From NCBI GenBank assembly GCA_019057475.1, contig DXJO01000006.1, positions 1 through 64,000 of the forward strand: a DNA stretch of 64,000 bases, written 5' to 3'. This stretch comes from Candidatus Thorarchaeota archaeon (GTDB lineage: Archaea > Asgardarchaeota > Thorarchaeia > Thorarchaeales > Thorarchaeaceae). Of this stretch, positions 46,411 to 64,000 are shown piece by piece; within the stretch, counting starts at the first letter, position 1; every line of letters starts with the position of its first letter. The position numbers and the translations under genes were made by a program. The notes under the pieces were generated by a model. The model did no database searches, was not told where the DNA came from, and saw only the letters and a list, made by a program, of their open reading frames with translations.

Positions 46411-47318
46411 AGATGGCAATGGCTTGGGGATGCCTTGTCCCCACTCGAAGATCACTCATAGGATATGAAGCGGCTACTAGAAAGGTTCTGAATCATCTTG
46501 GCGTTGAAACCGTAGATATCCCGAATGAAACCTGCTGTGCACCATTCTGGATGCAGTCTCTCGATTTTACTACCAGCCTAGCCATGGCTGCCCGAAATCT
46601 TGCAAAGGCGGAGGAAATGGGGCTTGACCTCCTAACACCTTGCAGCGGTTGCTTCCACTCCTATATGCGAGTGAATCACACGTATGAGAACCATCCGGAA
46701 ATGCGTGAAAAAGTAAACGATATTCTCGCAAAGGCAGACCTGAGATATGATGGGAATGTCGAGTCGCGTCACGTAGTTGATTTTCTCTACAAAGATATCG
46801 GTGTTAATGCAATCAAGGAGAGTATGAAGATAGATCTTGGTGAGATCGAGATCGGTCTTAGATATGGATGTCACATGCTCAAGCCAAGCGACCTGCTCAA
46901 TATCGAATACTCTGAAAGACCCCGATTCGGGGATGAGTTGCTAGAGGCTGTCGGCGTAAGGTGCAAGGAGTACACAGGGCGCTACAGGTGCTGTGGAGGG
47001 CTTCTTCGAGGAACACAGGATGATGTGGCTGACTATATACTACACGACCGACTGATGGATGCTAAAAATGCCAATCTCGACGGACTTGTGACTGTGTGTT
47101 CTCTCTGTCATATCCAGCACGACATGGGTCAGAAGAGCATCAAGCGGAAATTTGGCATAGAGGACCTCGAGATTCCGGTTTTGCACTTTCCACAATTGCT
47201 GGCTCTAGGGTTTGGATATTCTGCTGAAGAGATAGGACTGAATCTGCACACCGTGAAAACGGACGGAATCGTTGCGAAAATCATTGCGGGCGCATCGAAA
47301 GGAGGTGTCAAGAAATGA
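46407..47318 (+). CDS. hdrB: Heterodisulfide reductase subunit B (second type)
   Basis: WGC..TCCAP..CSGC and YGCH..CCGG..CSLC. Confidence 0.92.
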   Translation: MKMAMAWGCLVPTRRSLIGYEAATRKVLNHLGVETVDIPNETCCAPFWMQSLDFTTSLAMAARNLAKAEEMGLDLLTPCSGCFHSYMRVNHTYENHPEMREKVNDILAKADLRYDGNVESRHVVDFLYKDIGVNAIKESMKIDLGEIEIGLRYGCHMLKPSDLLNIEYSERPRFGDELLEAVGVRCKEYTGRYRCCGGLLRGTQDDVADYILHDRLMDAKNANLDGLVTVCSLCHIQHDMGQKSIKRKFGIEDLEIPVLHFPQLLALGFGYSAEEIGLNLHTVKTDGIVAKIIAGASKGGVKK

Positions 47319-50300
47319 GCACTGAGGAACCGAGAATAGGAGTATTCGTCTGCCACTGTGGTCTTAATATCGCTGGCGTAGTGGAATGCAAGAAAGTGGC
47401 CGATTTCGCTGCCACACTTCCTGATGTGGCCTATTCAGTGGACTTGCTGTTCGCCTGTTCCGACGACGGACAGGAACACATCAAGGAAGCCATCCATGAG
47501 CATAATCTGAACCGTGTCATCGTTGCCTCGTGCACTCCTCGGACACACGAACCTGTCTTCAGGCAGTGCCTTGAGGAGGCAGGGCTGAACCCCTATCTGT
47601 ACGACCAGGTCAATCTTCGGGAGCATGTCAGCTGGGTTCACATGGACGAGAAGGAGAAGGCTACGCAGAAGGCTTTGGAACTGGTGGCTATGTCCGTGGA
47701 GCGGGCCAAAAGGTTGGAACCCCTTGAACGTCAGATTGTGGATGTGATTCCGAAGTGTGCTGTCATCGGTGCTGGTGTCGCAGGCATATCTGCCGCGCTA
47801 GACTTAGCAGACGCGGGCTTTGAAACCTATCTAATCGAGAAGAGGCCGACTATCGGCGGGCAGATGGCATTGCTCGACAAGGTCTTTCCACAGAATGACT
47901 GTGCGATATGTATCCTTGGTCCCATCATGTCTCGTGTCGGGCGACATCCGAGAATCACACTCCTGCCTTACAGTGAGTTAGAGACAGTAAACGGGCACGT
48001 TGGCAATTTCCGGCTTACGGTCAGGAAGAAGACCCGCTATATCCACCCGGACATCTGTAATGGCTGTACCGACTGCGAACAGGTCTGTCCTGTTTCTACA
48101 CCCAACTCCTATGAGTTTTGGTTGACGGATCGCAAGGCGGTATACAGACCTTTCCCACAGGCAGTACCCAGTAGCTACACAATCGACAAGAAGGGGATCC
48201 CAGCTTGTAGGTTCTCCTGCCCCGCGCACGTGAATTGTCAGGGTTTTTCCACACTGATCAAGGAGAAACGCTTCAGTGAGGCTCTCGACATTGTAAGAAA
48301 CGCGATACCTTTCGCTGGAGTACTGGGTCGCGTTTGTACAAGTCCATGCGAAGCGAAGTGTGAACGGGGAGCGTTCGATGAAAGCTTGAGCATTAGAAAC
48401 CTACATCGGTTCCTAGCTGACTACGAGCGCGAACATGGCGCTACGAAAGTTGAGAAAATCAAGAAAGACAAGAAAGAAAAGATTGCTGTGGTGGGAGCGG
48501 GACCCGCTGGCATAGCTTGCGCCTATGACTTGGCTAAACTAGGCTATCCGGTGACTGTCTTCGAAGCCAGAGAGGAGAGTGGTGGTCTCCTGAGATGGGG
48601 CATCCCGGAATACCGGCTACCTCGTGATGTGCTGAGGGAGGAGATATCGAGAGTCGAAGGTCTTGGTGTCAAGATTCTTACGGGCAAACCAGTCAAGTCA
48701 ATCGCTAGTCTGAGGAATCGAGGTTTTAAGGCTGTTTTCCTCGCCACGGGCGCACCGGTTAGTACAAAGCTGGGAGTTGAAGGCGAGGATGCCAAAGGCG
48801 TGTTTCATGCCCTTGACTTCTTGAACCAGGTTAACAGCGGAGAGAGTGTTGATCTGGGGAAGAAGGTAGCAATCATTGGGGGCGGCAACGCTGCAGTTGA
48901 CTCGGCGAGAGTTGCGAAACGTCTTGGTGCAAGGACAGTGACACTCATCTATAGACGATCGCGAGTGGAGATGCCGGCCATCCCTAGTGAGATTGAGGAA
49001 GCAGAGAAAGAAGGAGTCAACCTTATGCTCTTGGCTACGCCCATTGGATTTATCATGTCTGATGGTGTCCTTGAGAGCATCAGATGCATCAAGATGCGGC
49101 TAGGTGAGCCTGACGCCTCTGGTCGCAGACGTCCGATACCGATTCCTGAATCGGAGTTTGAGGTGCGTGTTGACAATGTTATCATAGCCGTAGGCCAGAT
49201 GGTGAGCCCCACCAGCATTCTCAAGGGTCTAGAGGTCACACAATGGGATACCCTTTCAGTCGACCCAATCACGTTGCAGACGAGCTTAAAGGGTGTCTTC
49301 GCAGGAGGGGATGTTGTTTCAGGTCCAACGACGGTTGTGGAGGCTGTGGCTGCAGGAATAGAGGCAGCGAAGTCTATCGACCGCTATGTACGAGGCGTTG
49401 ATCTCTCAGAAGGAAGACCTGAGATACTCCGTCTGGTGCCATCTGCTGAGGTGGACAAGACGAGAGCTGAAATCGCTGAACGTGCAGTCATGCCAACTAT
49501 AAATGCGAAATTAAGGAAGAGTAACTTTGCTGAGGTTGAAACAGGCTTGGCCCTGAAGACTGCTGTTGCGGAAGCAGAGCGCTGTTTCAACTGTGCTCTG
49601 TGCTCTGAGTGTAACCTATGTATCGAGGTATGCAAGCCCAACGCCATCGATCATTCGTTGGTGGATGAGTTCGTCGAGCTGGATGTCGGGACTATCATCT
49701 TGGCCACTGGGTTCAAGCCCTATGACCCATCCGAAACTCGTGAGTTTGGTTATGGCGCTTTTAAGAATGTCATTACGAATGCTCAACTAGAGCGGCTAAC
49801 CAATGCCGCTGGACCTACCCACGGCAAAGTCAAGAGACCTTCTGACGGAATGCCGCCAAAGAGTGTTGCATTTGTGCAGTGCGTTGGCTCAAGAGACCGT
49901 AGAGTGAACCAAGACTACTGCTGCTACACGGGATGCGAGAATTCGCTGAAGCAGGCCACGCAGATAAAGGAGAAGTATCCTAACACTGAAATCTCCATCT
50001 TCGCAATGGACATTCGCACTCATGGCTTGGGCTATGAGGGTCTCTACCGCAGGGCTCGAGAGATGGGCGTAATCATCATCAAGGGACGTCCCTCCGAGAT
50101 TGAGGAGATTCCGGGAACAAGGTCTCTCAAAGTGCTCGCTGAGGACCTGTATACTGGCGAAAGACTCGGAACTACTTATGAACTGGTAGTGCTCGCGTCT
50201 GCGTTGCTACCCAATGACGACACGAAGGACCTAGCCCGCAAGTTGAACATTTCCACAGGGGAGTACGGCTATCTGATGGAAGCCCATCCCAAGCTGCGAC

Positions 50301-50686
50301 CAGTAGACAGCTTTCGTGACGGTGTATTTCTAGCGGGAGCTTGTCTTGGTCCAATGGACATCCCCAAGGCTGTGGCCTATGGAAAGGCTGCTGCTGCAGG
50401 TGCTCAGTCCTTGATGGCGCCAGGCAAGTTTCAGGTTGAACCCATTTATGCAGAGATTGACACGACGCTATGCAACGACTGTGATCTCTGTAACGATCTA
50501 TGTCCGTACAGTGCCATAACTGGCGAGGGTGACGAACGGAAAGTCATGTACGAAATCTGTCAGGGATGCGGGACATGTGCTGCTGCCTGTCCACAGATGG
50601 CGATTGACATGCGGCACTATAGATCAGAACAGCTAATGCCGCAGATTGCAGCTGCGGCGCGCATTCATGGAGGGATGAAGAAATGA
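47315..50686 (+). CDS. hdrA: Full-length HdrA with inserted GltD/NfnB-like NAD(P)H-FAD module (HdrL-like)
   Basis: GVFVCHCG, GAGVAG, NDCAIC; insertion with GRVCTSPCE, GAGPAG, GGGNAAVD, YRRS; QCVGSRD; C-terminal 2x[4Fe-4S]. Confidence 0.93.
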   Translation: MSTEEPRIGVFVCHCGLNIAGVVECKKVADFAATLPDVAYSVDLLFACSDDGQEHIKEAIHEHNLNRVIVASCTPRTHEPVFRQCLEEAGLNPYLYDQVNLREHVSWVHMDEKEKATQKALELVAMSVERAKRLEPLERQIVDVIPKCAVIGAGVAGISAALDLADAGFETYLIEKRPTIGGQMALLDKVFPQNDCAICILGPIMSRVGRHPRITLLPYSELETVNGHVGNFRLTVRKKTRYIHPDICNGCTDCEQVCPVSTPNSYEFWLTDRKAVYRPFPQAVPSSYTIDKKGIPACRFSCPAHVNCQGFSTLIKEKRFSEALDIVRNAIPFAGVLGRVCTSPCEAKCERGAFDESLSIRNLHRFLADYEREHGATKVEKIKKDKKEKIAVVGAGPAGIACAYDLAKLGYPVTVFEAREESGGLLRWGIPEYRLPRDVLREEISRVEGLGVKILTGKPVKSIASLRNRGFKAVFLATGAPVSTKLGVEGEDAKGVFHALDFLNQVNSGESVDLGKKVAIIGGGNAAVDSARVAKRLGARTVTLIYRRSRVEMPAIPSEIEEAEKEGVNLMLLATPIGFIMSDGVLESIRCIKMRLGEPDASGRRRPIPIPESEFEVRVDNVIIAVGQMVSPTSILKGLEVTQWDTLSVDPITLQTSLKGVFAGGDVVSGPTTVVEAVAAGIEAAKSIDRYVRGVDLSEGRPEILRLVPSAEVDKTRAEIAERAVMPTINAKLRKSNFAEVETGLALKTAVAEAERCFNCALCSECNLCIEVCKPNAIDHSLVDEFVELDVGTIILATGFKPYDPSETREFGYGAFKNVITNAQLERLTNAAGPTHGKVKRPSDGMPPKSVAFVQCVGSRDRRVNQDYCCYTGCENSLKQATQIKEKYPNTEISIFAMDIRTHGLGYEGLYRRAREMGVIIIKGRPSEIEEIPGTRSLKVLAEDLYTGERLGTTYELVVLASALLPNDDTKDLARKLNISTGEYGYLMEAHPKLRPVDSFRDGVFLAGACLGPMDIPKAVAYGKAAAAGAQSLMAPGKFQVEPIYAEIDTTLCNDCDLCNDLCPYSAITGEGDERKVMYEICQGCGTCAAACPQMAIDMRHYRSEQLMPQIAAAARIHGGMKK

Positions 50687-51111
50687 GTGGCAAGAGGTTC
50701 GAACCTAGTATCGTGGCGTTCACGTGCAACTGGTGCTCTTATGGCGGTGCAGACCTTGCGGGAATTTCACGTATCCAATACCCCCCCAATTCGAAGGTGA
50801 TTAGGCTCATGTGTTCAGGCAGAGTTGACCCGCTGATGACGCTTGAGGCGTTCAAGAATGGAGCTGACGGTGTAATCATTAGTGGCTGCCACATTGGTGA
50901 CTGTCACTACTCCACAGGCAACTACCGAACAGAGGTTCGATTCATGGCACTCCGATCAGCGATGGATGTTATTGGATTAAATCCAGAACGGTTGCGTCTT
51001 CTTTGGGCGAGTGCCTCAGAAGGACAGCAGTGGGCGGATACAATGCGAGAGATGGCTGAGCAAGTTAGAGAGCTTGGACCTAGTCCACTCAAAGGAGGTA
51101 GCAAGAAGTGA
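50683..51111 (+). CDS. mvhD: MvhD [2Fe-2S] subunit (Cys form)
   Basis: CNWCSYGGAD, MCSGRVD, GCHIGDCHY, WASASEG. Confidence 0.95.
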   Translation: MSGKRFEPSIVAFTCNWCSYGGADLAGISRIQYPPNSKVIRLMCSGRVDPLMTLEAFKNGADGVIISGCHIGDCHYSTGNYRTEVRFMALRSAMDVIGLNPERLRLLWASASEGQQWADTMREMAEQVRELGPSPLKGGSKK

Positions 51112-52448
51112 CTGTTGCAGGGGAAAAGATAGTTGTCGAGGATAGGAAATCTACTGATACTGCCTTAGTAATCGGTGGCGGTGTTTCTGGCATGCAAGCT
51201 GCTCTCGACATTGCCGACCAAGGCTACTCTGTGGTGCTAGTCGAAAGAACACCATCCATTGGTGGGGTCATGGCCATGCTGGATAAGACATTCCCCACAC
51301 TTGATTGTTCGGCATGCATCCTTACGCCCAAGCTGTCTGAGGTTGCTCGGCACCCGAACATCGAGCTCATGACCTACTCTGAAGTCAAGAGCATCACCGG
51401 AACTGCAGGCAACTTTAGAGTCAGCGTTCTTCGGAAAGCACGTAAGGTCCTCGAAGACAAGTGTTCCGGATGTGGGGATTGTGTTCCACACTGCCCAATA
51501 GAAGTGCGAAATGAGTTTGACCAAGGCCTGGGCTACCGCAAGGCGGTGTACATTGGGTTCCCACAGAACACACCCCTCGTCTATACTATTGATTCTGAGA
51601 ACTGTATCAAATGTGGTATGTGTGTCAAGTCATGTGAACGAGAGGCCATCGACCTTGACTTGGAGGATGAGGAGATTGAGATATCCGTTGGTGCCATCGT
51701 GGTGGCAACCGGATATGAGCTCTACAACGTAGCCAATTACAGGCGCTTTGGCTATGGTCGTTTCAAGAATGTGATAAACGCACTCGAGTTCGAGCGCCTC
51801 ATCAATGCCGCTGGACCAACGGCTGGGAATCTCATGAGGCTTAGCGATGGGAAGATTCCAAAGAGCATTGGGTTCATCCAATGTGTTGGGGCACGCGACG
51901 CGACGAAGGACGTACCATATTGCTCGCGAGTATGTTGCATGTACGGTATCAAGAATGCGGTCATGGCCAAAGAGCTCCAACACGAGAACGTGAAGAAGGT
52001 GACCATATACTCGATCGACATTCGAGCGTTCGGCAAGGGTTTTGAGGAATTCTACAACATGGCCAAGGATCGATTTGGCATTAAGTTCATCCGAGGAAGA
52101 GTAGGAGAGGTGTCGGAGAACTCACGGAACAAGAACATCATTGTGCGTGCCGAAGACACGACAACAGGGAAGTTCTTGGAGCAGGAACACGAACTAGTAG
52201 TGCTCTGCCCCGGAATCCTGCCTCCCAAAGGTCTGCGGGATACTGCGAATCAGCTGGGGCTCCAGCTTGACTCAGATGGCTTCATTCACGTGGAACAACC
52301 AGCGAGCAACCCTGTGGACACGGCGGTTTCTGGAGTCTACATATGCGGATGTGTTGAGGGTCCGAAAGACATTCCAGACTCCGTAGCAGCAGGAAGCGCG
52401 GCCGCGATGCGCGCAAGCATCACGTTATGGAGGGAAGGTGAGCACTAA
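51108..52448 (+). CDS. hdrA: HdrA-like subunit lacking N-terminal cluster domain and C-terminal ferredoxin
   Basis: Begins at GGGVSG; TLDCSACIL; inserted ferredoxin; YCSRVCC; ends after GPKDIPDSV. Confidence 0.9.
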   Translation: MTVAGEKIVVEDRKSTDTALVIGGGVSGMQAALDIADQGYSVVLVERTPSIGGVMAMLDKTFPTLDCSACILTPKLSEVARHPNIELMTYSEVKSITGTAGNFRVSVLRKARKVLEDKCSGCGDCVPHCPIEVRNEFDQGLGYRKAVYIGFPQNTPLVYTIDSENCIKCGMCVKSCEREAIDLDLEDEEIEISVGAIVVATGYELYNVANYRRFGYGRFKNVINALEFERLINAAGPTAGNLMRLSDGKIPKSIGFIQCVGARDATKDVPYCSRVCCMYGIKNAVMAKELQHENVKKVTIYSIDIRAFGKGFEEFYNMAKDRFGIKFIRGRVGEVSENSRNKNIIVRAEDTTTGKFLEQEHELVVLCPGILPPKGLRDTANQLGLQLDSDGFIHVEQPASNPVDTAVSGVYICGCVEGPKDIPDSVAAGSAAAMRASITLWREGEH

Positions 52449-54196
52449 TGGCTACAGAGGAAGTTCCAAGGATTGGCGTATTCGTATGTCATTGTGGACA
52501 TAACATTGCTGGGACTGTAGATGTTGAGCGCGTGGCGGAGATTGCCGCCCACTACCCGAATGTTGAGTTCGCTACACATTTCATGTTCATGTGCAGTGAC
52601 TCCGGACAACAGCTGATTCGCGACAAGATCGAGGAGTTTAGTCTAAATAGGGTCGTAGTTGCCAGTTGCTCTCCCCGGATGCACGAGCCAACGTTTCGAA
52701 GGGTGGTCGAAGAGGCTGATGTCAACAGATACTGCTTCGAACAGGTGAACCTGAGAGAGCACGTGTCTTGGTGCCATATGAGGGAGCCTGAGGCAGCTAC
52801 CGAGAAAGCGATAGATCTTATTCGGATGTCTGTTGCTAGGGCCGCCCTTCTCGTGCCACTCGAGGTTAAGACTGTGAGTGTAGAACCACATACTCTGGTC
52901 GTTGGCGGCGGGGTTGCTGGATTGAGGGCGGCAATCGACATTGACAGCCGCGGCTTCAAGGTCACTCTCGTGGAACGAGAGCCTGAACTCGGTGGGAATC
53001 TAGCAAAGCTCTCTACTCTCTATCAGGGCAATGAGAAAGCCAGTGATGTCATCGAACGTATGGTACTGGCGGCCCGAATTAGCGAGAACCTGACCATAAT
53101 GACTGATTCGGAAGTGGTTGACGTCGAAGGCTATATTGGCAATTTTGATGTGACTGTCAAGAACAATGCCACCGACAAGACAGAGAAGCTCCGGGTTGGA
53201 GCTATAATAGTTGCTACAGGCTTTCAGTCATGGGTGCCTGAAGGAATCCCTCCGTACGGAATGAGTCTGGATGTCATCACGTTGGCCCAGCTAGAGGAGA
53301 TGAAGCGGGATGACAAGTTATTATGTCCAAGTACCGGCAAGCCTCCCAAGAAGGTCATGTTTATCGGATGTGTTGGTTCTCGTCAACCGGGAGTGCAAGG
53401 GCATGAACACTGTTCCAGGTACTGTTGTACTGCCATGGTGAAGGCAGCTGCTGACATAACTGAGATTACTGACGAAGTTCTGATACTCTATGATGATATC
53501 CGTACATTCGGGAAGGGCCACGAGGAGGTCCACCGTTCTGCCCACGAGAAGTTTGTAATGTTCTCCAAGTTTGATCGCACCAAGCCTGCCAAGACAACAG
53601 TAGCTGACGGTGCTTTGAGTGTGAAATGGAGAGATATCTTGGCTGGCGATAATCTTGAGTTCCATCCGGACCTCTTGGTATTGGTTACAGCTATGATTCC
53701 CCCGGAAGGTGTAGAGAAAGTGTCCCAGCTGTTCAGCCTCACACGCTCGGCAGATGGCTTCTTCAATGAGGAACACATCAAGCTGGCTCCTTTAACTACT
53801 CACACCGCAGGTGTGATGATTGCAGGAGCTGCCCAATCTGCAAAGGATTCTACTGACAGCACTACGCAAGCGAGCGGAGCTGCCGCGAAAGCGGCTTCAT
53901 TGATGGCCCGGGGAGAAGTGGAGATTGAATCCACCGTTGCTCATGTGCTAGAAGAGCTGTGTTCCAGCTGTCACACATGCGCCACTGCTTGTCCATACGG
54001 TGCTATCTCCTTTGACACCTCAAAGAAACCGGAGATAGCCGTGGTGACAGAGGCAGAATGTCACGGATGTGGGACCTGCGCAGCAGGGTGTCCAAGCAGT
54101 GCCATTATTATGCGGCATTCGACTGATGAACAAATCACTGCAATGGTTGAAGCGTTTCTCATGCCTCCACCAGTGATGGGGGGTGGTGATTCATGA
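52448..54196 (+). CDS. hdrA: HdrA-like subunit with N-terminal domain and C-terminal ferredoxin but no internal ferredoxin
   Basis: GVFVCHCG, GGGVAG, no DCxxC, GCVGSR..HCSRYCC, CSSCHTC, CHGCGTC. Confidence 0.9.
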   Translation: MATEEVPRIGVFVCHCGHNIAGTVDVERVAEIAAHYPNVEFATHFMFMCSDSGQQLIRDKIEEFSLNRVVVASCSPRMHEPTFRRVVEEADVNRYCFEQVNLREHVSWCHMREPEAATEKAIDLIRMSVARAALLVPLEVKTVSVEPHTLVVGGGVAGLRAAIDIDSRGFKVTLVEREPELGGNLAKLSTLYQGNEKASDVIERMVLAARISENLTIMTDSEVVDVEGYIGNFDVTVKNNATDKTEKLRVGAIIVATGFQSWVPEGIPPYGMSLDVITLAQLEEMKRDDKLLCPSTGKPPKKVMFIGCVGSRQPGVQGHEHCSRYCCTAMVKAAADITEITDEVLILYDDIRTFGKGHEEVHRSAHEKFVMFSKFDRTKPAKTTVADGALSVKWRDILAGDNLEFHPDLLVLVTAMIPPEGVEKVSQLFSLTRSADGFFNEEHIKLAPLTTHTAGVMIAGAAQSAKDSTDSTTQASGAAAKAASLMARGEVEIESTVAHVLEELCSSCHTCATACPYGAISFDTSKKPEIAVVTEAECHGCGTCAAGCPSSAIIMRHSTDEQITAMVEAFLMPPPVMGGGDS

Positions 54197-54627
54197 CTGC
54201 CACTGTCACAATTTCTAAAGAGTGGATACCTAGGATTGCAGCCTTTTGCTGCAACTGGTGTTCCTACGCAGGTGCTGACCTAGCTGGCACAAGCAGAATC
54301 CAGTACCCCTCTGCTGTGCGAATAATCAGGGTAAATTGCACTGGTAGGGTCGACCCCGAATTCGTACTAAACGCCCTTGACAAGGGTGCGGATGGAGTAC
54401 TCGTGTCAGGCTGTCATCCAGGGGACTGCCATTACACAAGCGGCAATCTCAAGATGCGGGCACGATGGACGCTACTTCAGATGGCCGTTGAGCAAGCCGG
54501 AATCAACCCCGATAGGATTCGTCTACAGTGGGCCAGCGCTTCAGAGGGACAGAAGTTCGCTGATGGGGTTAGAGAACTCACGGAGAAGGTCAAGAATTTG
54601 GGTCCGTTTAGGAGGGGTTGGCAATGA
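54193..54627 (+). CDS. mvhD: MvhD [2Fe-2S] subunit (Cys form)
   Basis: CCNWCSYAGAD, NCTGRVD, GCHPGDCHY. Confidence 0.95.
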   Translation: MTATVTISKEWIPRIAAFCCNWCSYAGADLAGTSRIQYPSAVRIIRVNCTGRVDPEFVLNALDKGADGVLVSGCHPGDCHYTSGNLKMRARWTLLQMAVEQAGINPDRIRLQWASASEGQKFADGVRELTEKVKNLGPFRRGWQ

Positions 54628-54971
54628 AAGAGAAATCTACACAGGATAGGATTGAAGCAGCCATTGACGCCTTCGGAAGCGAGCGATTAAGATGGCTTAT
54701 AGGCAAAGGAGACGTTCTAACCCAACGAAACGAGCTGACCGAAGAGAAACTCAAGGAGCTCGTCGACAAAACAGTCCGCGAAGAGATTGACCGGAGTACC
54801 ATTGCCAGGCGGCTTAGAGAGTCGCCTTCAACGATATCAGAGATATCGAAGGCAACGAAGCTGGAAACGGACTACATATTGGAAAATCTCCTCGCCATGA
54901 TGAAGTGGAACCGCGTTGAGATAGTCGATGAGAAGCAGAGAGAATATGTCTATGCTCTGAAGGAGATCTGA
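54624..54971 (+). CDS. Small helical/winged-helix protein within the hydrogenase operon
   Basis: ATGA overlap with mvhD; ERLRWLIGK; C-terminal PSTISEISKATKLETDYILENLLAMMKWNRV wHTH-like. Confidence 0.7.
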   Translation: MKEKSTQDRIEAAIDAFGSERLRWLIGKGDVLTQRNELTEEKLKELVDKTVREEIDRSTIARRLRESPSTISEISKATKLETDYILENLLAMMKWNRVEIVDEKQREYVYALKEI

Positions 54972-54973
54972 AC

Positions 54974-55897
54974 GTGACTGAACCAGTTCCTATCGCAATG
55001 GCCCAAGGTAGCTCCTGTTGGGGTTGTTACCAGAGCCTCATTGACATTCACCTTAATCTGGCAACTGTCCTCCCCCTGTTGGACATCAAGTACTGGACGT
55101 GTGTGGCCGACTTCAAGCTCAAGGATTTGGAGGGCTATCCTGACAAATCGATCACGGTCGGCCTGTACGAGGGAATGGCCCGAACAGAGGAGGACATTCA
55201 TCTGCTAAAGCTCATAAGAGCGAAGTGCAAGATACTGATTGCATTTGGCTCATGTTCATGCTTTGGCGGCATTCCTGGAATGGCTAACTTCTCAACGATA
55301 GAGGAGTGCAACGAGGTCAAGTTCCGAAACAACAAGACCGTTAAGGATGGTGAGCTGCCAACAGAGAACCTCCCAGCGATTGCTCCCGTTGTGATACCCA
55401 ACCGAGACATAGTTGACTTTGAAATCTTTTTGCCGGGGTGCCCGCCAACCTCTAGCTTGATTCTCACTGCATTGACTGCTCTGCTTGAAGGCAAACCGAT
55501 TGAGCTACCACCACACACGGTGTGTCACTATTGCGATCGCGAGAAGAAAGAAACCCCGATAGAGAAGATACTGAGACCCTACGAAGGCATAGCAGACCCC
55601 GACCGGTGCCTTCTCGAACAGGGGTATATCTGCCTTGGCTCTGCAACTTGGGGTCTCTGTGAAGGACAGTGTGTCAGCCATGGCGTGACTTGCCGGGGCT
55701 GTTTTGGACCGCCTCCGCCAATCATGGGCGACCAAGGGGCGGCGGCAATATCCATGCTTGGCTCATATGCACCTCTTGAATCGGAAGTCCTTGCTGACAC
55801 GGTCCATGACCCACTTGGTTGCTTCTGGAGGTTCACCTACCCAACAAGCCACCTGGGTGCCATTCGAATAAAGCGAGAGGAGGCAAAGACGAAATGA
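54974..55897 (+). CDS. vhuG: F420-non-reducing [NiFe(Se)] hydrogenase small subunit
   Basis: SCWGC, FGSCSCFGGIPG, LPGCPP, VCHYC, CLLEQGYICLG, CRGCFGP. Confidence 0.94.
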   Translation: MTEPVPIAMAQGSSCWGCYQSLIDIHLNLATVLPLLDIKYWTCVADFKLKDLEGYPDKSITVGLYEGMARTEEDIHLLKLIRAKCKILIAFGSCSCFGGIPGMANFSTIEECNEVKFRNNKTVKDGELPTENLPAIAPVVIPNRDIVDFEIFLPGCPPTSSLILTALTALLEGKPIELPPHTVCHYCDREKKETPIEKILRPYEGIADPDRCLLEQGYICLGSATWGLCEGQCVSHGVTCRGCFGPPPPIMGDQGAAAISMLGSYAPLESEVLADTVHDPLGCFWRFTYPTSHLGAIRIKREEAKTK

Positions 55898-57210
55898 CCA
55901 ACGAGAAGATAATCCGCATTGACCCAGTGACACGCCTTGAAGGTCATGGATCGTTGACTATCAAGCTGGGTCCTGGCAACAAGGTCAAGGATGTCCAGTT
56001 CAACGTTAACAGTACACGATTCTTTGAGAAGTTTCTCGAAGGGCGACCAATGGAAGAGGCTCCACGAATCGCTCCGCGGATCTGCGGAATCTGCCCTATC
56101 CCGCATCATCTTGCATCACTGAAAGCCGTGGAGGCCGCCTGGGATGTGACACCTCCACCTGCAGCAATCAAGCTTAGGCGGCTATTGATTGAGGCGAAGC
56201 AGCTCTCATCTCACGCAATTCACTTCTACGCTCTTGCGGCTCCTGATTTTGTCTTTGGACCCTTCGCGAGCCCGGCTGTACGGAACGTTGCTGCTGTTCT
56301 CAAGTATCTCCCTGATGTTGCAGTCCAAGCGATCAAGCTCATGGAGTTCGGTCAGGAACTGTGCGCGACTATTGGGGCCAAGGCAATCCACCCAACAACG
56401 GGCATTCCTGGTGGGATGCTGTACGCTATGAAAGAAGAAGAGCGCGATGATTGGCTCAAGAAGGTCCCTGAGATGCTGGAGAACATCCATAAGACAGTGG
56501 ACCTTGCCAAGACCGTTGTCAACTCATACATCGAGGTGATAACGAAGCTCGCAGTCACTCCAACGTACTACGTTGGTCTGACCAATGATGGAGCTTTTGA
56601 CATCTATGATGGCAAGATTCGCGTGATGGATCCAGATGGCAAGATTGTGAAAGAATTCATGCCTCACGAGTACACAAAGTACTACGGCGAGCACGTTCCT
56701 AAGCACTCCTATGCGACTCACATCTACTACAAACCAGCCGGCTACCCCGAGGGTATTTGGCGAGCGAATACTCTTGCACGATGCAACGTTAACGATAGGA
56801 TGGCCACACCTCTTGCAGACGCGGCCCTGAAGGAGATGAGAGAACTCGTTGGGAGACCCTCGCATCACACGTTTGTATACCACTACGCTCGAATCGTAGA
56901 GATGGTTCAAGCTGCTGAGATGATCAAGACGCTCCTTGAGGATCCCGAGATTGTAAGCACGGACGTGAAGCTTTCTGACGTTGAACCCAAGGCTGGCGAC
57001 GGCGTTGGTGTTGTCGAGGCTCCGCGAGGCATTCTGCTCCACAACTACGAGTCTGATGACAAGGGCATGCTGGTCAAGGCGAATCTCATTGTCGCCACGA
57101 ACAACAATATTGCCGGCATCGAGAAATCATTGATGGTGGCCGCGAAACAAATCTTCGAAGACAAAGTGCTCGAGAAGATTACACTTCCTGAACCCATGGT
57201 GAAAACTTAG
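55894..57210 (+). CDS. vhuA: F420-non-reducing hydrogenase large subunit (group 3c), lacking C-terminal L2 motif
   Basis: TRLEGH, L1 RICGICPIPH, VEAPRGILLH, ANLIVAT; ends at TAG without DPCxxC. Confidence 0.94.
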   Translation: MTNEKIIRIDPVTRLEGHGSLTIKLGPGNKVKDVQFNVNSTRFFEKFLEGRPMEEAPRIAPRICGICPIPHHLASLKAVEAAWDVTPPPAAIKLRRLLIEAKQLSSHAIHFYALAAPDFVFGPFASPAVRNVAAVLKYLPDVAVQAIKLMEFGQELCATIGAKAIHPTTGIPGGMLYAMKEEERDDWLKKVPEMLENIHKTVDLAKTVVNSYIEVITKLAVTPTYYVGLTNDGAFDIYDGKIRVMDPDGKIVKEFMPHEYTKYYGEHVPKHSYATHIYYKPAGYPEGIWRANTLARCNVNDRMATPLADAALKEMRELVGRPSHHTFVYHYARIVEMVQAAEMIKTLLEDPEIVSTDVKLSDVEPKAGDGVGVVEAPRGILLHNYESDDKGMLVKANLIVATNNNIAGIEKSLMVAAKQIFEDKVLEKITLPEPMVKT

Positions 57211-57228
57211 ACAAAAGAATTGATGATC

Positions 57229-57381
57229 ATGACAGAAGAAATACCTGAAGGCGTACTGAACATCATCGAGATGGTTGTTCGGTGCTACGACTGCTGACTA
57301 TCCTGCGGCGCTCATCTCGTCATTATCGACGAAGAGGGCCGCGAACTAGTCAGGAAGGAGCTTCAGACCGGCGGCGGATGA
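57229..57381 (+). CDS. vhuU: Selenocysteine-containing hydrogenase subunit U (not in ORF track)
   Basis: MTEEIPEGVLNIIEMVVRCYDC-U(TGA 57295-57297)-LSCGAHLVIIDEEGRELVRKELQTGGG; TGA falls exactly at the first Cys position of the L2 motif that vhuA lacks. Confidence 0.92.
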
Positions 57382-57420
57382 AGACCCAGAAAAAAGATTG
57401 AAAACTGAGTCTGACCTGCT
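57373..57420 (+). promoter_or_regulatory. Candidate eukaryote-like SECIS element
   Basis: GGCGG-A-UGA-AGACCCAG-[AAAAAAGAUUGAAAA]-CUGAGUCU-GA-C-CUGCU: AUGA/GA tandem G.A core, 8-bp upper stem with one mismatch, A-rich loop, 5-bp lower helix with G.U pairs. Confidence 0.72.
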
Positions 57421-57727
57421 CCAGCAGGGGCGGAGTCGGTCTGGCTCCTTCAAACACCAGTCTTGTATGCTCGAACTCCTACACTCCAAAGAAGACAATG
57501 AATGATTTCGGACATTGAATTGTTATTTCGAATCCAGATTCAAAATTCAGAAACATCTTCCTGATTGTCTGTAATCATGCATGAAATCATTGATTGCGTT
57601 TCGTTTCAAATGATGAATCTCGTTTCCGTGACCGAAACCTAACTCAATAGTATTATAATCTCGTTGAGAGGACTCCTCGCTGGCCTCTGGCATGATTGCT
57701 CGCAGAACGGAACGGTGAATTGAGCCA

Positions 57728-60472
57728 ATGACGATTGACCACACATCGAAGAAAAGTACATCCAAACTGGACGTTGTATCTAGCGAAGCCCTGGTTATTG
57801 GGGGTGGCGTAGCTGGCATGCAGGCGGCTCTGGATATGGCTAACCAGGGTTTCAAGGTTCATCTGCTAGAGAAGACTCCTTCTCTCGGCGGAAAAATGGC
57901 GATGATAGACAAGACCTTCCCAACATTGGATTGCTCGGCATGTATTCTCACGCCGCGTCTCAGCGAGGTATCGCGTCATCCAAACATCGAACTACATACG
58001 TATTCTGACGTAATTAGCGTTGCTGGAAGAGTTGGCGATTTCAAAGTAAAGATACGCAAGCGGGCGCGATATGTGGATGAGGACAAGTGCTCGGCATGTG
58101 CGGACTGTGTCCCGGCTTGTCCAGTGGAGGTTCCTAATGAATTCGATCAGAGTCTTGGTTTCCGTAAGGCAATCTATCAACCGTTCCCACAGGCGACACC
58201 GAGCACCTACACCATTACCAAGCTTGGCACACCAGCATGCAGAGAAGCGTGTCCCGCAGACGTGAATCCTCAAGGCTTCATCTCCCTCATGAAGGAAGGG
58301 AGGTTTCATGATGCTCTTAGAATATTCAGGAAGTCCAATCCGTTCCCAGGTGTACTTGGCCGAGTGTGCATAGCCTTCTGCGAGGGCGAGTGTGTTCGAG
58401 GAGAGCTAGATGAGAGTGTAAGCATCAGGAATCTCCACAGGTTCTTGGCTGACTACGAGAGAAAACATGGACCTGATAGGCCAATTGAAGCGAAGATTGA
58501 CAAGGATGAAAGAATCGCCGTGGTCGGCGCAGGTCCCGCGGGTCTGGCATGTGGGTATCATCTTGTCAAGATGGGCTACCCCGTAACCGTATTCGAGGCT
58601 CAACCTGAAGCAGGAGGACTCCTCCGCTATGGCATTCCGGAATACAGACTTCCTCGTGACATACTGGCCGAAGAGATCGACTGGATTGCCAAGCATGGCG
58701 TAAAAATAAAGACAAGCTCTCCAGTCGAGTCAATCAAGAGCCTGAAAAAGGAGGGCTTCAAGGCGATATTCTTGGCTACAGGAGCCTCAAATAGTAACAA
58801 ACTTGGGATTGCAGGAGAGGAGGCAAAGGGCATCTACCATGCCAGTGATTTCTTGGAACGAGCCAACTCAGGGAAACCATATCCGTTGGGCGAAAAGGTT
58901 GCTGTGATTGGCGGTGGGGACGCGGCAATTGACTCCGCGAGAGTTGCCATTAGACTCGGTGCGAAGGAAGTCACGATAGTTTATCGCAGGTCACATGTCG
59001 AGTTGCCTGCCATCCCCAGCGAAGTCGAAGATGCACGAGAGGAAGGCCTTAATCTGCTACTACTGACTAATCCTATCGAAATCCTCACATCAAAGGATGA
59101 GCTGAGGGGCATCAGATGTATAAAGATGAAACTGGGTGAACCAGATCACTCGGGTCGTCGACGGCCCCAAGTCATTCGGGGTTCGGAATTCACGCTGATT
59201 GTAGACAACATGATTATTGCTGTGGGACAGAGCGTGACACCAAAGGGCCTACACGAGGAATGTGATTGTTCGGAATGGGGAACAATCAAAGTGAATCCCC
59301 TAACTCTGGAAACTAACATGGAAGGAGTCTTTGCTGGCGGTGACGTTGTTCTCGGTCCAGCCACCGCAGTTAAAGCCGTGGCCCATGGCAAGGAGGCTGC
59401 AATCTCAATAGATCGATTTCTGAGAAAGGTCAATGTTGAAGCGGATAGAATTGAAGAACGACACCGAGTGAGAGTTGAAGAGGTTGACATGGAAAAACCT
59501 ACTGAGCCTCGCGTAGACATGCCCAAACACGGTGTAGCGGGAAGAATTCAATCTTACACTGAGGTTGAACTTGGGTTTGAACAAGAATCTGCTACACAGG
59601 AGGCTGAACGATGCCTAGGCTGTGCAATCTGTTGCGAATGTGAGCTGTGTGTTGAAGCTTGCACGCGTGAAGCAATCGATCACAAGATGCAGGATGAGAT
59701 AATAGAGCTTCCAGTAGGTGCGATAGTATTGGCCGCAGGATACAGGCTTTACGATGTTAGTGATTACCCCAGGCTCGGATACGGAAAGTTCCCTAATGTC
59801 ATCCACGCGATGGAGTACGAGCGACTGATCAACGCATCAGGCCCAACCCACGGACATCTGATAAAGCTCAGTGACGGGAAGCTACCCAAGAGCATCGGTT
59901 TCATCCAATGTGTCGGTGCCCGAGATGTCAACCGCGGCGTTCCTGAGTGTTCACGAGTGTGTTGCATGTATGGTATCAAAAACGCAGTCATGGCAAAGGA
60001 ACATGACCCTGAGATTGACGTGACCATCTACTACGCTGACATCCGTGCCTTTGGCAAGGGCTTCGAGGAATTCTACAACATGGCTAAGGATCGATTTGGT
60101 ATCAAGTTCATTCGAGGCAGAGTTGGAGAGGTCATGGAGGACCGCGAAACAGGCAATCTCACTGTGAGAGTTGAGAACACCGATGAACATGCCATTCAGG
60201 ACATTGAACATGATCTTGTAGTAATCAGCCCCGGTATTCAACCCCCCTGGGGTCTTGATGTCATCGCCAGTGAGCTCGGACTAGAACTAGATGAGACAGG
60301 CTATGTGCCAGTGAAGGACGAGCTACTTGCGCCTGTGGACACTACTATTCCTGGTGTCTTTGCGTGTGGATGCGTCGATAGTCCCAAGGACATTCCAGAC
60401 TCGGTGACTGCGGGTAGCGCTGCCGCCATGAGGGCGACAATAATACTATCGCAGGCTGAGAAAAAGGAGTAA
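57728..60472 (+). CDS. hdrA: HdrA-like subunit (no terminal cluster domains) with GltD/NfnB-like insertion
   Basis: GGGVAG, TLDCSACIL, GRVCIAFCE, GAGPAG, GGGDAAID, YRRS, CSRVCC, PKDIPDSV. Confidence 0.92.
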   Translation: MTIDHTSKKSTSKLDVVSSEALVIGGGVAGMQAALDMANQGFKVHLLEKTPSLGGKMAMIDKTFPTLDCSACILTPRLSEVSRHPNIELHTYSDVISVAGRVGDFKVKIRKRARYVDEDKCSACADCVPACPVEVPNEFDQSLGFRKAIYQPFPQATPSTYTITKLGTPACREACPADVNPQGFISLMKEGRFHDALRIFRKSNPFPGVLGRVCIAFCEGECVRGELDESVSIRNLHRFLADYERKHGPDRPIEAKIDKDERIAVVGAGPAGLACGYHLVKMGYPVTVFEAQPEAGGLLRYGIPEYRLPRDILAEEIDWIAKHGVKIKTSSPVESIKSLKKEGFKAIFLATGASNSNKLGIAGEEAKGIYHASDFLERANSGKPYPLGEKVAVIGGGDAAIDSARVAIRLGAKEVTIVYRRSHVELPAIPSEVEDAREEGLNLLLLTNPIEILTSKDELRGIRCIKMKLGEPDHSGRRRPQVIRGSEFTLIVDNMIIAVGQSVTPKGLHEECDCSEWGTIKVNPLTLETNMEGVFAGGDVVLGPATAVKAVAHGKEAAISIDRFLRKVNVEADRIEERHRVRVEEVDMEKPTEPRVDMPKHGVAGRIQSYTEVELGFEQESATQEAERCLGCAICCECELCVEACTREAIDHKMQDEIIELPVGAIVLAAGYRLYDVSDYPRLGYGKFPNVIHAMEYERLINASGPTHGHLIKLSDGKLPKSIGFIQCVGARDVNRGVPECSRVCCMYGIKNAVMAKEHDPEIDVTIYYADIRAFGKGFEEFYNMAKDRFGIKFIRGRVGEVMEDRETGNLTVRVENTDEHAIQDIEHDLVVISPGIQPPWGLDVIASELGLELDETGYVPVKDELLAPVDTTIPGVFACGCVDSPKDIPDSVTAGSAAAMRATIILSQAEKKE

Positions 60473-60508
60473 TTCTGCTGGTGCATTATGAAGGACAGGT
60501 GATATGAG

Positions 60509-61009
60509 ATGAACAATGAAACACACACACCCTCCTCAGATTTCGCAAAAGAGATTGCCTTAATCCCGGGAGGGGAAGTCATCAACAAGTGTATCCAGTG
60601 TGGCATATGTACTGCCAGTTGTGTTGTGGCCTGTGTAGACGACCAATACCGGCCTCGGCGGCTGATTCAGAAGATTCTGATAGGCAAGAGAGATGAGGTG
60701 CTGAAGAGCGATCAACCTTGGCTATGCATGACGTGCAGAATGTGTGAAGAGCGATGCCAGGAGGGCGTAAGTCCCGCAGAGATATTCCACGCTGTACGAA
60801 TCCTCGCAGTCAAAGAGGGTCACATTCCCAAGGTGTTTCAGATTACTGTCGAAAAGGTACTCTGCGATGGTTGGATGTTAGCAGATGCATATACCGATTT
60901 CAACGAAGATGAGCGAGAGGATCTCGGCCTAAATCCTGCCCTCGCTTGGAATGACACTTTTACGAAGAAGGTGAAGAAGAAGTACCTCGCTGGGGAGGAG
61001 AGCGCATGA
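60509..61009 (+). CDS. hdrC: Heterodisulfide reductase subunit C, paralogue of 44375..44866
   Basis: CIQCGICTASC, WLCMTCRMCEERC. Confidence 0.92.
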   Translation: MNNETHTPSSDFAKEIALIPGGEVINKCIQCGICTASCVVACVDDQYRPRRLIQKILIGKRDEVLKSDQPWLCMTCRMCEERCQEGVSPAEIFHAVRILAVKEGHIPKVFQITVEKVLCDGWMLADAYTDFNEDEREDLGLNPALAWNDTFTKKVKKKYLAGEESA

Positions 61010-61884
61010 AAGAGATAATGCTGTACAGAGGGTGCACTACTCCTGTGAGGCTCCCGGCATACGAGGCAGCCACAATAGCTGTGCTGGGGAAGCTCGGAGT
61101 GAAGGTTGTTGAGATGGATGATGCAAACTGCTGCGGAGCCCAATATGTCGAGTCCGTAAGCAGAATGGCATTTGCAGCAATGAGCGGAAGAATCCTCGCA
61201 CTGGCTGAGAAAGAGAGCCAAGACATCTTGGCGTTGTGTGGCGCTTGTTCAGGTTCCCTGAAGATAAACAAGCATTTTCTGGACAACGACGAGAAGGCCC
61301 GTAAGGAGGTTAACGAACTCCTGTCAGAAGAGGGGTTGAAATATACCGGCAAGACTAGAGTTCGACACCTGCTCCAAGTCTTGAACGAGGATATCGGTTT
61401 CGAAGCAATTGAGAAAGCCATAAAGAAACCCTACAAAGGCTTGAAATTGGCCGCACATTATGGTTGTCACGTAACTCGGCCCTATGAGATTGTTCAAGTC
61501 GATGACCCTGAAAATCCCACAATCATTGACCGTCTTATTGAGATTGCGGGGGCAGAGGCTGTGGACTATGTGGGCAAGACCAGGTGCTGCGGTGGGCCTC
61601 TCCTGGCAATGGATGAGAGTCTTGCGACTCACATTGGCCAAGACAAGATAAGAGATGCCATCGCCGCCGGCGCACAAGGCATGGTCACCGCATGCGTGTT
61701 CTGTGATATCCAGTTGACACAAGTCCAGTTCGGTGAAGATACAGATTCGAGCAAGATGATTCCCGTCATTCCTATTGTGCAGTTTCTCGGTCCAGCCCTC
61801 GGCATCAAGGAGGATGTGCTGGGCATTGAGTTGAACAAGACCAGTCCCGATATCATCTTGTCAGCATTACAGGAGGCGAAATAA
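61006..61884 (+). CDS. hdrB: Heterodisulfide reductase subunit B, paralogue of 44866..45753
   Basis: YRGCTTPVRL, NCCG, CGAC, HYGCH, CCGG, CVFC. Confidence 0.92.
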   Translation: MKEIMLYRGCTTPVRLPAYEAATIAVLGKLGVKVVEMDDANCCGAQYVESVSRMAFAAMSGRILALAEKESQDILALCGACSGSLKINKHFLDNDEKARKEVNELLSEEGLKYTGKTRVRHLLQVLNEDIGFEAIEKAIKKPYKGLKLAAHYGCHVTRPYEIVQVDDPENPTIIDRLIEIAGAEAVDYVGKTRCCGGPLLAMDESLATHIGQDKIRDAIAAGAQGMVTACVFCDIQLTQVQFGEDTDSSKMIPVIPIVQFLGPALGIKEDVLGIELNKTSPDIILSALQEAK

Positions 61885-63629
61885 TGACTGAAGCAGAAAC
61901 ACCAAGGATTGGCGTTTTCATCTGTCACTGTGGTCACAATATCGCGGGAGTCGTGGATGTGGTAAGAGTCGCTAAGATGGCTGAGTCTCTGCCGCATGTC
62001 GTCTTCTCGACGGATGACATGTTCATGTGTGCTGATGCTGGTCAACAACTAATCAAGGACATGGTGGAGGAGCATAGTCTGAATCGCGTCGTAGTCGCTA
62101 GCTGCTCACCCAGAATGCACGAACCTACATTTCGTAGAGTCGTCGAAGAGGCTGGCCTCAATCGTTATCTCTTCGAGCAGACCAATCTTCGAGAGCATGT
62201 ATCTTGGTGTCACATGAGAGAGCCCGAAGCGGCCACTGAGAAGGCAATGGATCTGGTACGGATGTCTGTTGCGCGAGCGGCCAAGCTTGAGAATCTGCCA
62301 GTGAAGAGCGTTAAAGTCACCCCTCGCACTTTAGTCGTTGGCGGAGGAATCACTGGCCTTCGAGCTGCACTCGATATTGCTAACCGTGGTTTTGATGTCG
62401 TTCTGGTGGACAAGGAACCAAAACTCGGCGGACATGTTGCGAAGTGGACTCACATGTTTACAGGCGACAGGTCAGGATCTGAGGTTGTTGGCCCCTTGGT
62501 CAAAGAAGTGAAAGCGCACAGTCGTATTGAAATTCTGACGAATAGCAGTGTGATCGAGTTTGATGGCTACATTGGCAACTTCGAGGCCACCATAGAGAAC
62601 AGGAAGGACAAGGCTCGCAGTAAATTTGACATTGGCACGGTGATTGTGGCAATTGGTTTTGACGCCTTCAAGCCCCACGGATACTACGGCTACGGAGAGA
62701 GTCCAGATATAGTCACTCTGGCTGAGCTACAAGAGATGCCTCCGAGAGATCGTCTGCTTAAGCCTAGCGACGGAAAGCCTGCAAGCAAGATTGCATTTAT
62801 TGGATGTGTAGGATCGCGTGAGCCTGGCAAGAGGGGTCATGAACATTGTTCCAGGCATTGTTGTCCTGCCGTGGCTAAAGCTGCTTCTGATCTTAAAGAC
62901 AGGCTCGACGAAGTGCTAATCCTTTACAAAAGCATCCGAACGTATGGCAGAGGCCATGAAGAACTGCATCGATTGGCCCGGTCAAAACACGTCATCTACT
63001 CTCGGTTCCCGGACGGAGAAGACCCGGTTATCGAAGTAGTGGACGGAAAAGTCAAGATGAGATGGACTGATATTTACGCAGATGAGGAACTGCAATTTGA
63101 GCCCGACATCCTTGTCTTGGCGTCCGCGATGGTTGCCCGATCGGACATTGACGAAACCACGAAGCTCTTTGGTCTAACTAGGAGTAGAGACGGATTCTTT
63201 AATCCGGAGCATATCAAGCTCGCTCCGCTTACCACACACACTGCAGGCGTTATGATTGCAGGCGCTGCGCAGGCGCCAAAGAATGCGTCTGAGTCAGTTG
63301 TCGATGCCAGTGGCGCAGCAGCAAAGGCCGTCGGAATCATGGCGCGAGGCGAGGTTGAGATTGAATCAACTGTATCTCGTGTCATTTCGGAATTGTGTTC
63401 TTCATGTCACACTTGCGTTACAGCGTGTCCATACGGCGCAATTGAAATGGACGAGTCGAAGGACCCGCCCATCGCCTTCGTGACTGAAGCGAAATGTCAC
63501 GGTTGCGGCACATGTGCCGCAGCTTGTCCGAGCAGTGCTATCATAATGTTGCACTCGACTGACGACCAAATCATGACGATGGTGCAAGCTTACCTCTGCG
63601 CACCACCCGACACAATAGGAGGTACATAG
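61884..63629 (+). CDS. hdrA: HdrA-like subunit, paralogue of 52448..54196
   Basis: GVFICHCG, GGGITG, HCSRHCC, CSSCHTC, CHGCGTC. Confidence 0.9.
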   Translation: MTEAETPRIGVFICHCGHNIAGVVDVVRVAKMAESLPHVVFSTDDMFMCADAGQQLIKDMVEEHSLNRVVVASCSPRMHEPTFRRVVEEAGLNRYLFEQTNLREHVSWCHMREPEAATEKAMDLVRMSVARAAKLENLPVKSVKVTPRTLVVGGGITGLRAALDIANRGFDVVLVDKEPKLGGHVAKWTHMFTGDRSGSEVVGPLVKEVKAHSRIEILTNSSVIEFDGYIGNFEATIENRKDKARSKFDIGTVIVAIGFDAFKPHGYYGYGESPDIVTLAELQEMPPRDRLLKPSDGKPASKIAFIGCVGSREPGKRGHEHCSRHCCPAVAKAASDLKDRLDEVLILYKSIRTYGRGHEELHRLARSKHVIYSRFPDGEDPVIEVVDGKVKMRWTDIYADEELQFEPDILVLASAMVARSDIDETTKLFGLTRSRDGFFNPEHIKLAPLTTHTAGVMIAGAAQAPKNASESVVDASGAAAKAVGIMARGEVEIESTVSRVISELCSSCHTCVTACPYGAIEMDESKDPPIAFVTEAKCHGCGTCAAACPSSAIIMLHSTDDQIMTMVQAYLCAPPDTIGGT

Positions 63630-63631
63630 CA

Positions 63632-64000
63632 ATGACGACGAAAACAGCAGCCAAGATTGACAACACTGAGAGTTGGGAACCGAGAATCGTAGCGTTCTGC
63701 TGCAACTGGTGTTCCTATGCTGGAGCTGACCTAGCTGGCACTAGCAGAATCCAGTATCCCCCGAATGCCAGGATTCTACGAGTCAATTGTACCGGCCGGA
63801 TAAGTCTTGAGTTTATCTTGGCCGCTCTTGAGATGGGTGCAGACGGAGTTCTTGTGTCTGGATGCCACCCAGGTGACTGCCATTATACGAGCGGCAACCT
63901 TAAGCTCAGGGCGCGCTGGACTATCATGAAGAAGGCAATTGAGCAGGCCGGTGTTGACCCTCGCAGAGTCCGGCTCCAGTGGGCGAGTGCCTCTGAGGCA
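63632..64000 (+). CDS. mvhD: MvhD [2Fe-2S] subunit, truncated by the window end (not in ORF track)
   Basis: MTTKTAAKIDNTESWEPRIVAFCCNWCSYAGADLAGTSRIQYPPNARILRVNCTGR...GCHPGDCHY...LQWASASE. Confidence 0.94.
   Translation, partial: MTTKTAAKIDNTESWEPRIVAFCCNWCSYAGADLAGTSRIQYPPNARILRVNCTGRISLEFILAALEMGADGVLVSGCHPGDCHYTSGNLKLRARWTIMKKAIEQAGVDPRRVRLQWASASEA

Follow-up and report, generated by a model that had tools for sequence, protein, structure and literature searches.

A predicted three-way-junction SECIS element at the end of a Thorarchaeal vhuU gene, with the UGA stop codon in its core

The window analysed here, a 64,000-nucleotide stretch of DNA from a Candidatus Thorarchaeota archaeon, contains the locus of a split hydrogenase. 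Its large-subunit gene, vhuA, shows 94–95% identity in named Thorarchaeota genomes. A motif check of vhuA found the N-terminal RxCGxC motif and no C-terminal metal-binding motif. Because vhuA lacks this second motif, which vhuU supplies, we assigned the small downstream open reading frame (ORF) as vhuU. The genes and the recoded codon are as follows:

55894–57210, plus strand: vhuA, large subunit of a split [NiFe(Se)] hydrogenase (Pfam NiFeSe_Hases, E = 4e-28).
57229–57381, plus strand: vhuU, predicted 50-aa selenoprotein with the motif R-C-Y-D-C-U-L-S-C-G-A-H.
57295–57297, plus strand: in-frame UGA predicted to be read as selenocysteine (Sec), codon 23 of vhuU; orthologues have TGA in 128/131 loci and TGT (Cys) in 3/131.

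We took ATG 57229 as the vhuU start (an alternative ATG lies at 57223); the stop is TGA 57379–57381, which gives a UGA-to-UGA distance of 84 nt. Hydrogenase large subunits usually carry D-P-C/U. Asgard VhuU has D-C-U (57280–57315 in this window), with D-C in 128 of 131 loci, D-P in two and D-N in one. The genome encodes tRNA-Sec, SelB and a SelD with an in-frame UGA, together with a HycI-family protease; its L7Ae-family ORFs number only two, both short (125 and 98 aa). Several copies of hdrA and mvhD surround the hydrogenase (window positions 47315–64000), all of them Cys forms, and the homology queries used found no Sec-type hdrA, mvhD or Prx-like genes in this genome.

The original prediction had placed a eukaryote-like SECIS at the end of vhuU, with the terminal TGA inside an ATGA at 57378–57381 and a TGAC at 57412–57415, and we found both motifs at these positions. 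The spacing of 83 nt that it gave is also correct, counted from the first base of the Sec codon to the A of AUGA. The core and upper stem of this copy are:

57378–57382, plus strand: 5′ SECIS core AUGA(A) (PMC4989117), the UGA of which is the vhuU stop; its columns are invariant in 72 family loci.
57383–57411, plus strand: upper helix P2 (57383–57389 with 57405–57411) and its 15-nt A-rich loop (57390–57404).
57412–57415, plus strand: 3′ SECIS core (U)GA(C); among 117 loci, GAC in 105 and AAC in 10.

The stem and A-rich loop were present as proposed; the strand boundaries given for them were not, as CUGAGUCU (57405–57412) and UGAC share U57412. The resulting stem consists of A57382–U57412 plus seven positions, including one C·A mismatch (57386·57408), and closes a loop that begins with adenines (AAAAAA at 57390–57395). 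A loose pattern of core, stem and AAA had 16 matches on both strands of the 3.34-Mb genome, both vhuU stops among them, and an Rfam scan of 57200–57750 returned no SECIS family up to E 10, with chance snoRNA and plastid matches only. Taken alone, the originally predicted interval 57370–57428 folded unremarkably (z = −1.51 versus shuffles). The longer segment 57353–57455 folded at −45.1 kcal/mol (z = −4.45), which none of 200 shuffles matched. The element also stands in a 7.5-kb contig of run X1, which may be the source sample, and this match rules out an assembly slip in the sequence. Runs X2 and X4, from other studies, carry C57386T, which turns the C·A mismatch into a U-A pair, and X2 also carries C57445T, which retains a lower-helix pair as G-U. 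Contigs of the RNA run X16, which would show presence only, do not cover the element. A DNA-pattern search of metagenomes for the variant of this copy gave 17 matches, none of which fit the covariance model.

In the minimum-energy fold, the element of this copy is a three-way junction of P2 with a lower helix, P1, and a side hairpin, P3:

57354–57372, plus strand: 5′ strand of P1, in the last vhuU codons (57354–57361 and 57364–57372, with a 2-nt bulge).
57416–57433, plus strand: side hairpin P3, the third arm (57416–57422 with 57427–57433, loop AGCA).
57435–57451, plus strand: 3′ strand of P1.

Pair probabilities in this copy were approximately 1 for P1 (0.8–1.0 along its 5′ strand) and 0.9 for P3. 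Across the vhuU alignment, P2 was 93.5% paired, with both-side changes in eight of nine pairs, compared with 34–51% pairing in slid controls. P1 covaried at third codon positions (columns 15–87, five pair types), and the differences of its 3′ strand from that of a paralogue are mirrored by differences in the coding strand. The position of P3 is conserved in orthologues and its stem scored better than shuffled versions in 92 of the 94 distinct segments; its central pairs are near-invariant, so its covariation is thin. In folds computed with an open core, at least five P1 pairs were expected in 112/116 loci, and P3 outweighed helix I, the classical lower stem, in 106/116. The junction is kept where the element is fully non-coding, with P1 and P3 of unrelated sequence. 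RNAalifold recovered all three helices unaided in family f9 (97.4% paired). On the alignment of the gene's own family (A1), it preferred another long stem below P2, one that covaries weakly, and this preference reduces our certainty of the junction.

It had also been proposed that a hairpin, CCTGC-TCCA-GCAGG at 57415–57428, takes the 3′ strand of the lower helix and thereby forms a switch. The hairpin sequence is present; as a fold it is a minor register of P3 (probability ~0.09) and not the favoured one. Nor does it capture the lower helix, as P1 uses 57435–57451 (probability ~1) and the hairpin region forms the third arm. The fold with this hairpin, at −41.8 versus −45.1 kcal/mol for the junction and specific to this copy, was rejected. 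A classical helix I was also rejected for this copy, at −39.3 versus −45.1 kcal/mol and a probability of ~0.01.

Two checks named in the original prediction were stop/core overlap with stem covariation in orthologues and a comparison with other SECIS elements of this genome. We gathered vhuU loci from Asgard genomes and parsed 131, of which 128 have UGA and three have Cys at the Sec position; the loci are kin, so the counts are descriptive and overstate independence. The stop was the core-position UGA in 117/128 Sec-vhuU loci from ten Asgard families. In these 117, the UGA stop lies 84 or 96 nt after the Sec UGA, and 115 have the stem followed by GAC or AAC. Another ten loci (families f7, f26 and f29) end in UAA or UAG with the SECIS wholly in the 3′ UTR, and one has a premature UAA. 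By inspection, the three Cys-type vhuU loci have no such element. Within this genome, the stop coincided with the core in all four of the selenoprotein or candidate selenoprotein genes checked.

Several vhuU loci are unusual in form. The gene with the premature UAA (L043; G044:C49) retains an intact SECIS, and of another (L145; G004:C35) the last codons and the SECIS are all that remain. At L150, L151, L153 and L154, the 3′ end of vhuU and its SECIS recur as a degenerate second copy ~1.1–1.3 kb downstream, flanking inserted genes that resemble a nucleotidyltransferase pair or an Lrp-type regulator; at these loci the SECIS may have served as an insertion site for genes.

The same fold was found at selD, at four vhuD loci (fold predictions only) and in a family that we term CxxU. 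In selD of this genome (G000:C45:24508–25580, minus strand; L103), the UGA stop is the SECIS core (type II), with a P3 hairpin after it. The distance from the stop to the selD element downstream is 11–14 nt or less in other Asgard families; in L237, L239 and L243, a UGA stop lies 11–14 nt upstream of the core. The CxxU protein has 267 aa and no Pfam family (G000:C40:119859–120662, minus strand; L233/L259; relatives L260–L288). Nearly all of the 69 Thorarchaeal genomes with a match have one in-frame TGA; of 30 loci examined, 28 have this TGA at residue 25, one carries Cys and one is missing the region. The CxxU stop is the SECIS core and the side hairpin covaries. Among the archaeal selenoprotein families that a 2026 review lists in its text, none matched this protein. 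An mvhD-fdhA-fdhB-like operon (L147; G032:C96) also has a SECIS-like element, 100 nt after its last gene and ~3.7 kb from the mvhD start.

A further occurrence is at cysS, where a complete three-arm SECIS-like element lies ~25–55 nt behind the stop in 9/30 Thorarchaeal loci:

G000:C8:59421–59528, minus strand: SECIS-like element behind cysS (L112/L186); others at L195, L202–L205, L208, L211, L214, L149 and L152.

Outside this count, G001 has such an element at its second cysS and G008 at a fragment of the gene. The helices of the cysS element, which was found by a model with the full fold, covary. It is patchy across genera and the downstream genes vary at that site. We saw neither an in-frame UGA in the element-bearing cysS frames nor a selenoprotein neighbour, and found no link between SECIS and cysS in the papers searched; the element may be regulatory or a relic of insertions. 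Directly upstream of cysS at L112 is a 95-aa ORF without a Pfam family (L112:4075–4359, minus strand).

Taken together, the sequence and folding results suggest that the end of vhuU contains an ordinary Asgard element of the lokiSECIS or type I eSECIS-like kind, built into the gene as a three-way junction and representing an extreme case of the minimal distance between Sec codon and SECIS (probability roughly 0.8). The vhuU mRNA carries a Sec UGA and, 84 nt on, a stop UGA that forms the 5′ half of the G·A core. Folding and covariation suggest that P1, P2 and P3 form, with P1 starting 57 nt after the Sec codon, beyond a ribosome positioned on that codon. By analogy with eukaryotic and methanococcal SECIS systems, the folded element would recruit SelB/EFSec and Sec-tRNA, directly or through an L7Ae-family or other protein, and Sec would be inserted. 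Ribosome geometry suggests that the same ribosome would then unwind P1 as it translates the last codons and that, at the stop, its mRNA channel would enclose the core together with the 5′ strand of P2. Because such a ribosome would have unwound P1 and would occupy the core, a release factor would terminate translation there. The stop would be UGA because the SECIS core must be UGA. Experiments on any Asgard SECIS were not found in the literature, and both Sec insertion and its partner here are predicted.

That a ribosome at the second UGA cannot leave the SECIS folded was already part of the original prediction, and this part agrees with the mechanism above. Its further proposal, of a built-in discriminator between Sec and stop, is overstated, as the overlap is not required: ten vhuU loci lack it and three selD genes (L237, L239 and L243) have their stop outside the core. 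We read the overlap as a compact layout of ancestral origin, which lineages are able to abandon, and not as a dedicated device. A weaker form of this proposal holds that the overlap is kept for safety: a UGA stop just upstream of an intact SECIS would leak, and displacement of the SECIS would force a change to UAA or UAG. Such a change is seen in all ten of the vhuU loci with a SECIS wholly in the 3′ UTR, which favours a safety role, as do the coincidence of stop and core in the four genes of this genome and the finding that the selD UGA stops outside the core are still at the start of P1. However, the ten loci probably represent three or four independent events, and several are AT-rich, which may favour UAA anyway. 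Read-through here would add eight residues, up to another in-frame UGA at 57406, and would only extend a tail that methanococcal VhuU, which is cleaved at its C terminus during maturation, loses. Moreover, the stops of vhuD are diverse and include UGA (Mariotti 2016, PMC4989117). We therefore consider a safety role possible but rather unlikely, and prefer the reading of the overlap as a compact layout.

Within its family, this copy is an outlier. A duplicate vhuG-vhuA-vhuU operon lies in the same genome (G000:C29:64311–66800; L002), with its vhuA-vhuU pair 2.5 kb past the window. The duplicate operons share 90–95% protein identity; identity to the paralogue is ~90% in coding DNA and ~50% right after the vhuU stop. 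The paralogue SECIS has the canonical 9-bp form, and P2 of the present copy is the weakest among 73 family loci (−4.3 versus a median of −14.1 kcal/mol). The covariance model scored this copy at 67 bits and the paralogue at 113, although its training set contained this copy, so that the 67 bits are no independent evidence. On folding energy, the weak P2 may make this copy less active than that of the paralogue. One possible explanation is that this SECIS, part of a duplicated operon, is decaying or has been tuned down, the paralogue (C29:66566) doing most of the work. The weak P2, with its top two pairs lost, the lower score and the drop in identity beyond the stop are consistent with such decay. 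By contrast, the core, the 29-nt core-to-core length and both lower helices have been retained through matched changes, related strains have the mismatch repaired (C57386T) and the Sec codon is intact, which makes decay unlikely.

The junction could also take part in a switch of another kind. Once a ribosome covers the 5′ side of P1, the 3′ strands of P1 and P3 might refold as an alternative hairpin lying before a pyrimidine tract (P4), delaying re-formation of the SECIS. When the P1 5′ strand was masked, P4 prevailed over P3 in 45/72 family loci, and P4 shows some both-side changes. However, P4 is 80.7% paired where a slide of +2 already gives 73.6%, of its two covarying pairs one is disrupted in 31 and the other in 25 of the 72 sequences, and it is absent or weak in families f16, f25, f27 and f29, so that we regard this switch as very unlikely. 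Still less probable is a classical two-helix SECIS, in which the GGCGG codons form a short helix I with the nucleotides immediately following the 3′ GA, leaving the side hairpin as an incidental feature: the published frhA lower stem pairs [U/C]GG with C[C/U][A/G] (Huang 2024, PMC11227280), the corresponding pairs are 93.8% paired in the own family of this gene and RNAalifold yields a related stem on A1, but these pairs hardly covary, f9 lacks the 5′ partner and still keeps P3, P1 and P3 persist with unrelated sequence in wholly non-coding elements, and helix I has a probability of ~0.01 in this copy.

The three-way junction thus remains the preferred anatomy, and its closest relative is the lokiSECIS of Lokiarchaeum VhuU.1, for which the stop/SECIS overlap and its explanation by minimal distance have been published (Mariotti 2016, PMC4989117). 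As described there, the two elements share the gene, an AUGA before the stem and GA/AA after it, an A-rich loop, 29 nt between the core halves, an AUGA that is the stop, and the minimal-distance explanation. They differ in host, here a Thorarchaeal one, and in that the strict Loki stem has 9 bp and an 11-nt loop ending in G, whereas here the stem has ~7 bp and the 15-nt loop ends in A; the strict 9-bp/11-nt form is present in the paralogue and most orthologues. The main text of that paper does not describe a side hairpin or a long lower helix. The type I eSECIS-like elements of frhA and vhuU share the AUGA_GA core, the type I form, occurrence in Thorarchaeia and overlap with UGA stops, such overlaps being frequent (Huang 2024, PMC11227280). 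The model in that text combines a plain internal loop with a short lower stem, which uses bases that form P3 here, and gives a typical loop start of G[U/G]AAA, compared with AAAAAAG in this copy. Like both classes, the present element terminates a selenoprotein gene at its 3′ end, in a genome that encodes Sec, has the AUGA/GA core and shows compensatory stem changes. A third arm is described in neither of these two main texts nor in that of the 2026 review, and we found no three-way junction in an Asgard SECIS in the papers searched.

More distant systems share parts of the element. Form I eukaryotic SECIS elements have the tandem G·A core after AU, the unpaired apical adenines and a minimal distance to the recoded UGA; they differ in lying wholly in the 3′ UTR and in having a longer helix II, a two-way junction and a requirement for SBP2, whereas the three-way junction here begins inside the coding sequence. 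SBP2 has been reported to be absent from Asgard archaea. The k-junction of TPP riboswitches (Wang 2014, PMC4005666) is likewise a three-way junction with a tandem G·A kink-turn, and the sequence and computed canonical pairing of our element would be compatible with such a junction. The methanococcal SECIS is also a 3′-located archaeal Sec signal, with vhuU a selenoprotein there too. It differs in its GAA_A bulge and three S-S pairs, which are absent from the conserved fold here; the original assignment to a eukaryote-like, non-methanococcal Asgard type with an AUGA...GA core is thus borne out.

The use of the stop codon as SECIS core is real and conserved, and has been known since 2016; as this layout has long been in print, the present case adds a Thorarchaeal example only. 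The conserved third arm and long lower helix are a modest refinement of the published anatomy. Published Asgard SECIS models consist of the core and upper stem, and the two additional helices would change what a construct for functional work has to contain. Where SBP2 is lacking, the third arm would also offer a candidate binding site. A broader and more speculative proposal, which we consider unlikely, is that all Asgard SECIS elements are k-junctions whose side hairpin (with a mostly YGCNN loop) docks SelB or a stand-in for SBP2, that this arm was lost in eukaryotes as SBP2 arose, and that the module in the cysS 3′ UTR ties cysteine charging to selenium status. The layout itself predicts that a ribosome at the stop would destroy the signal needed by a second ribosome that waits at the Sec codon, 28 codons earlier.
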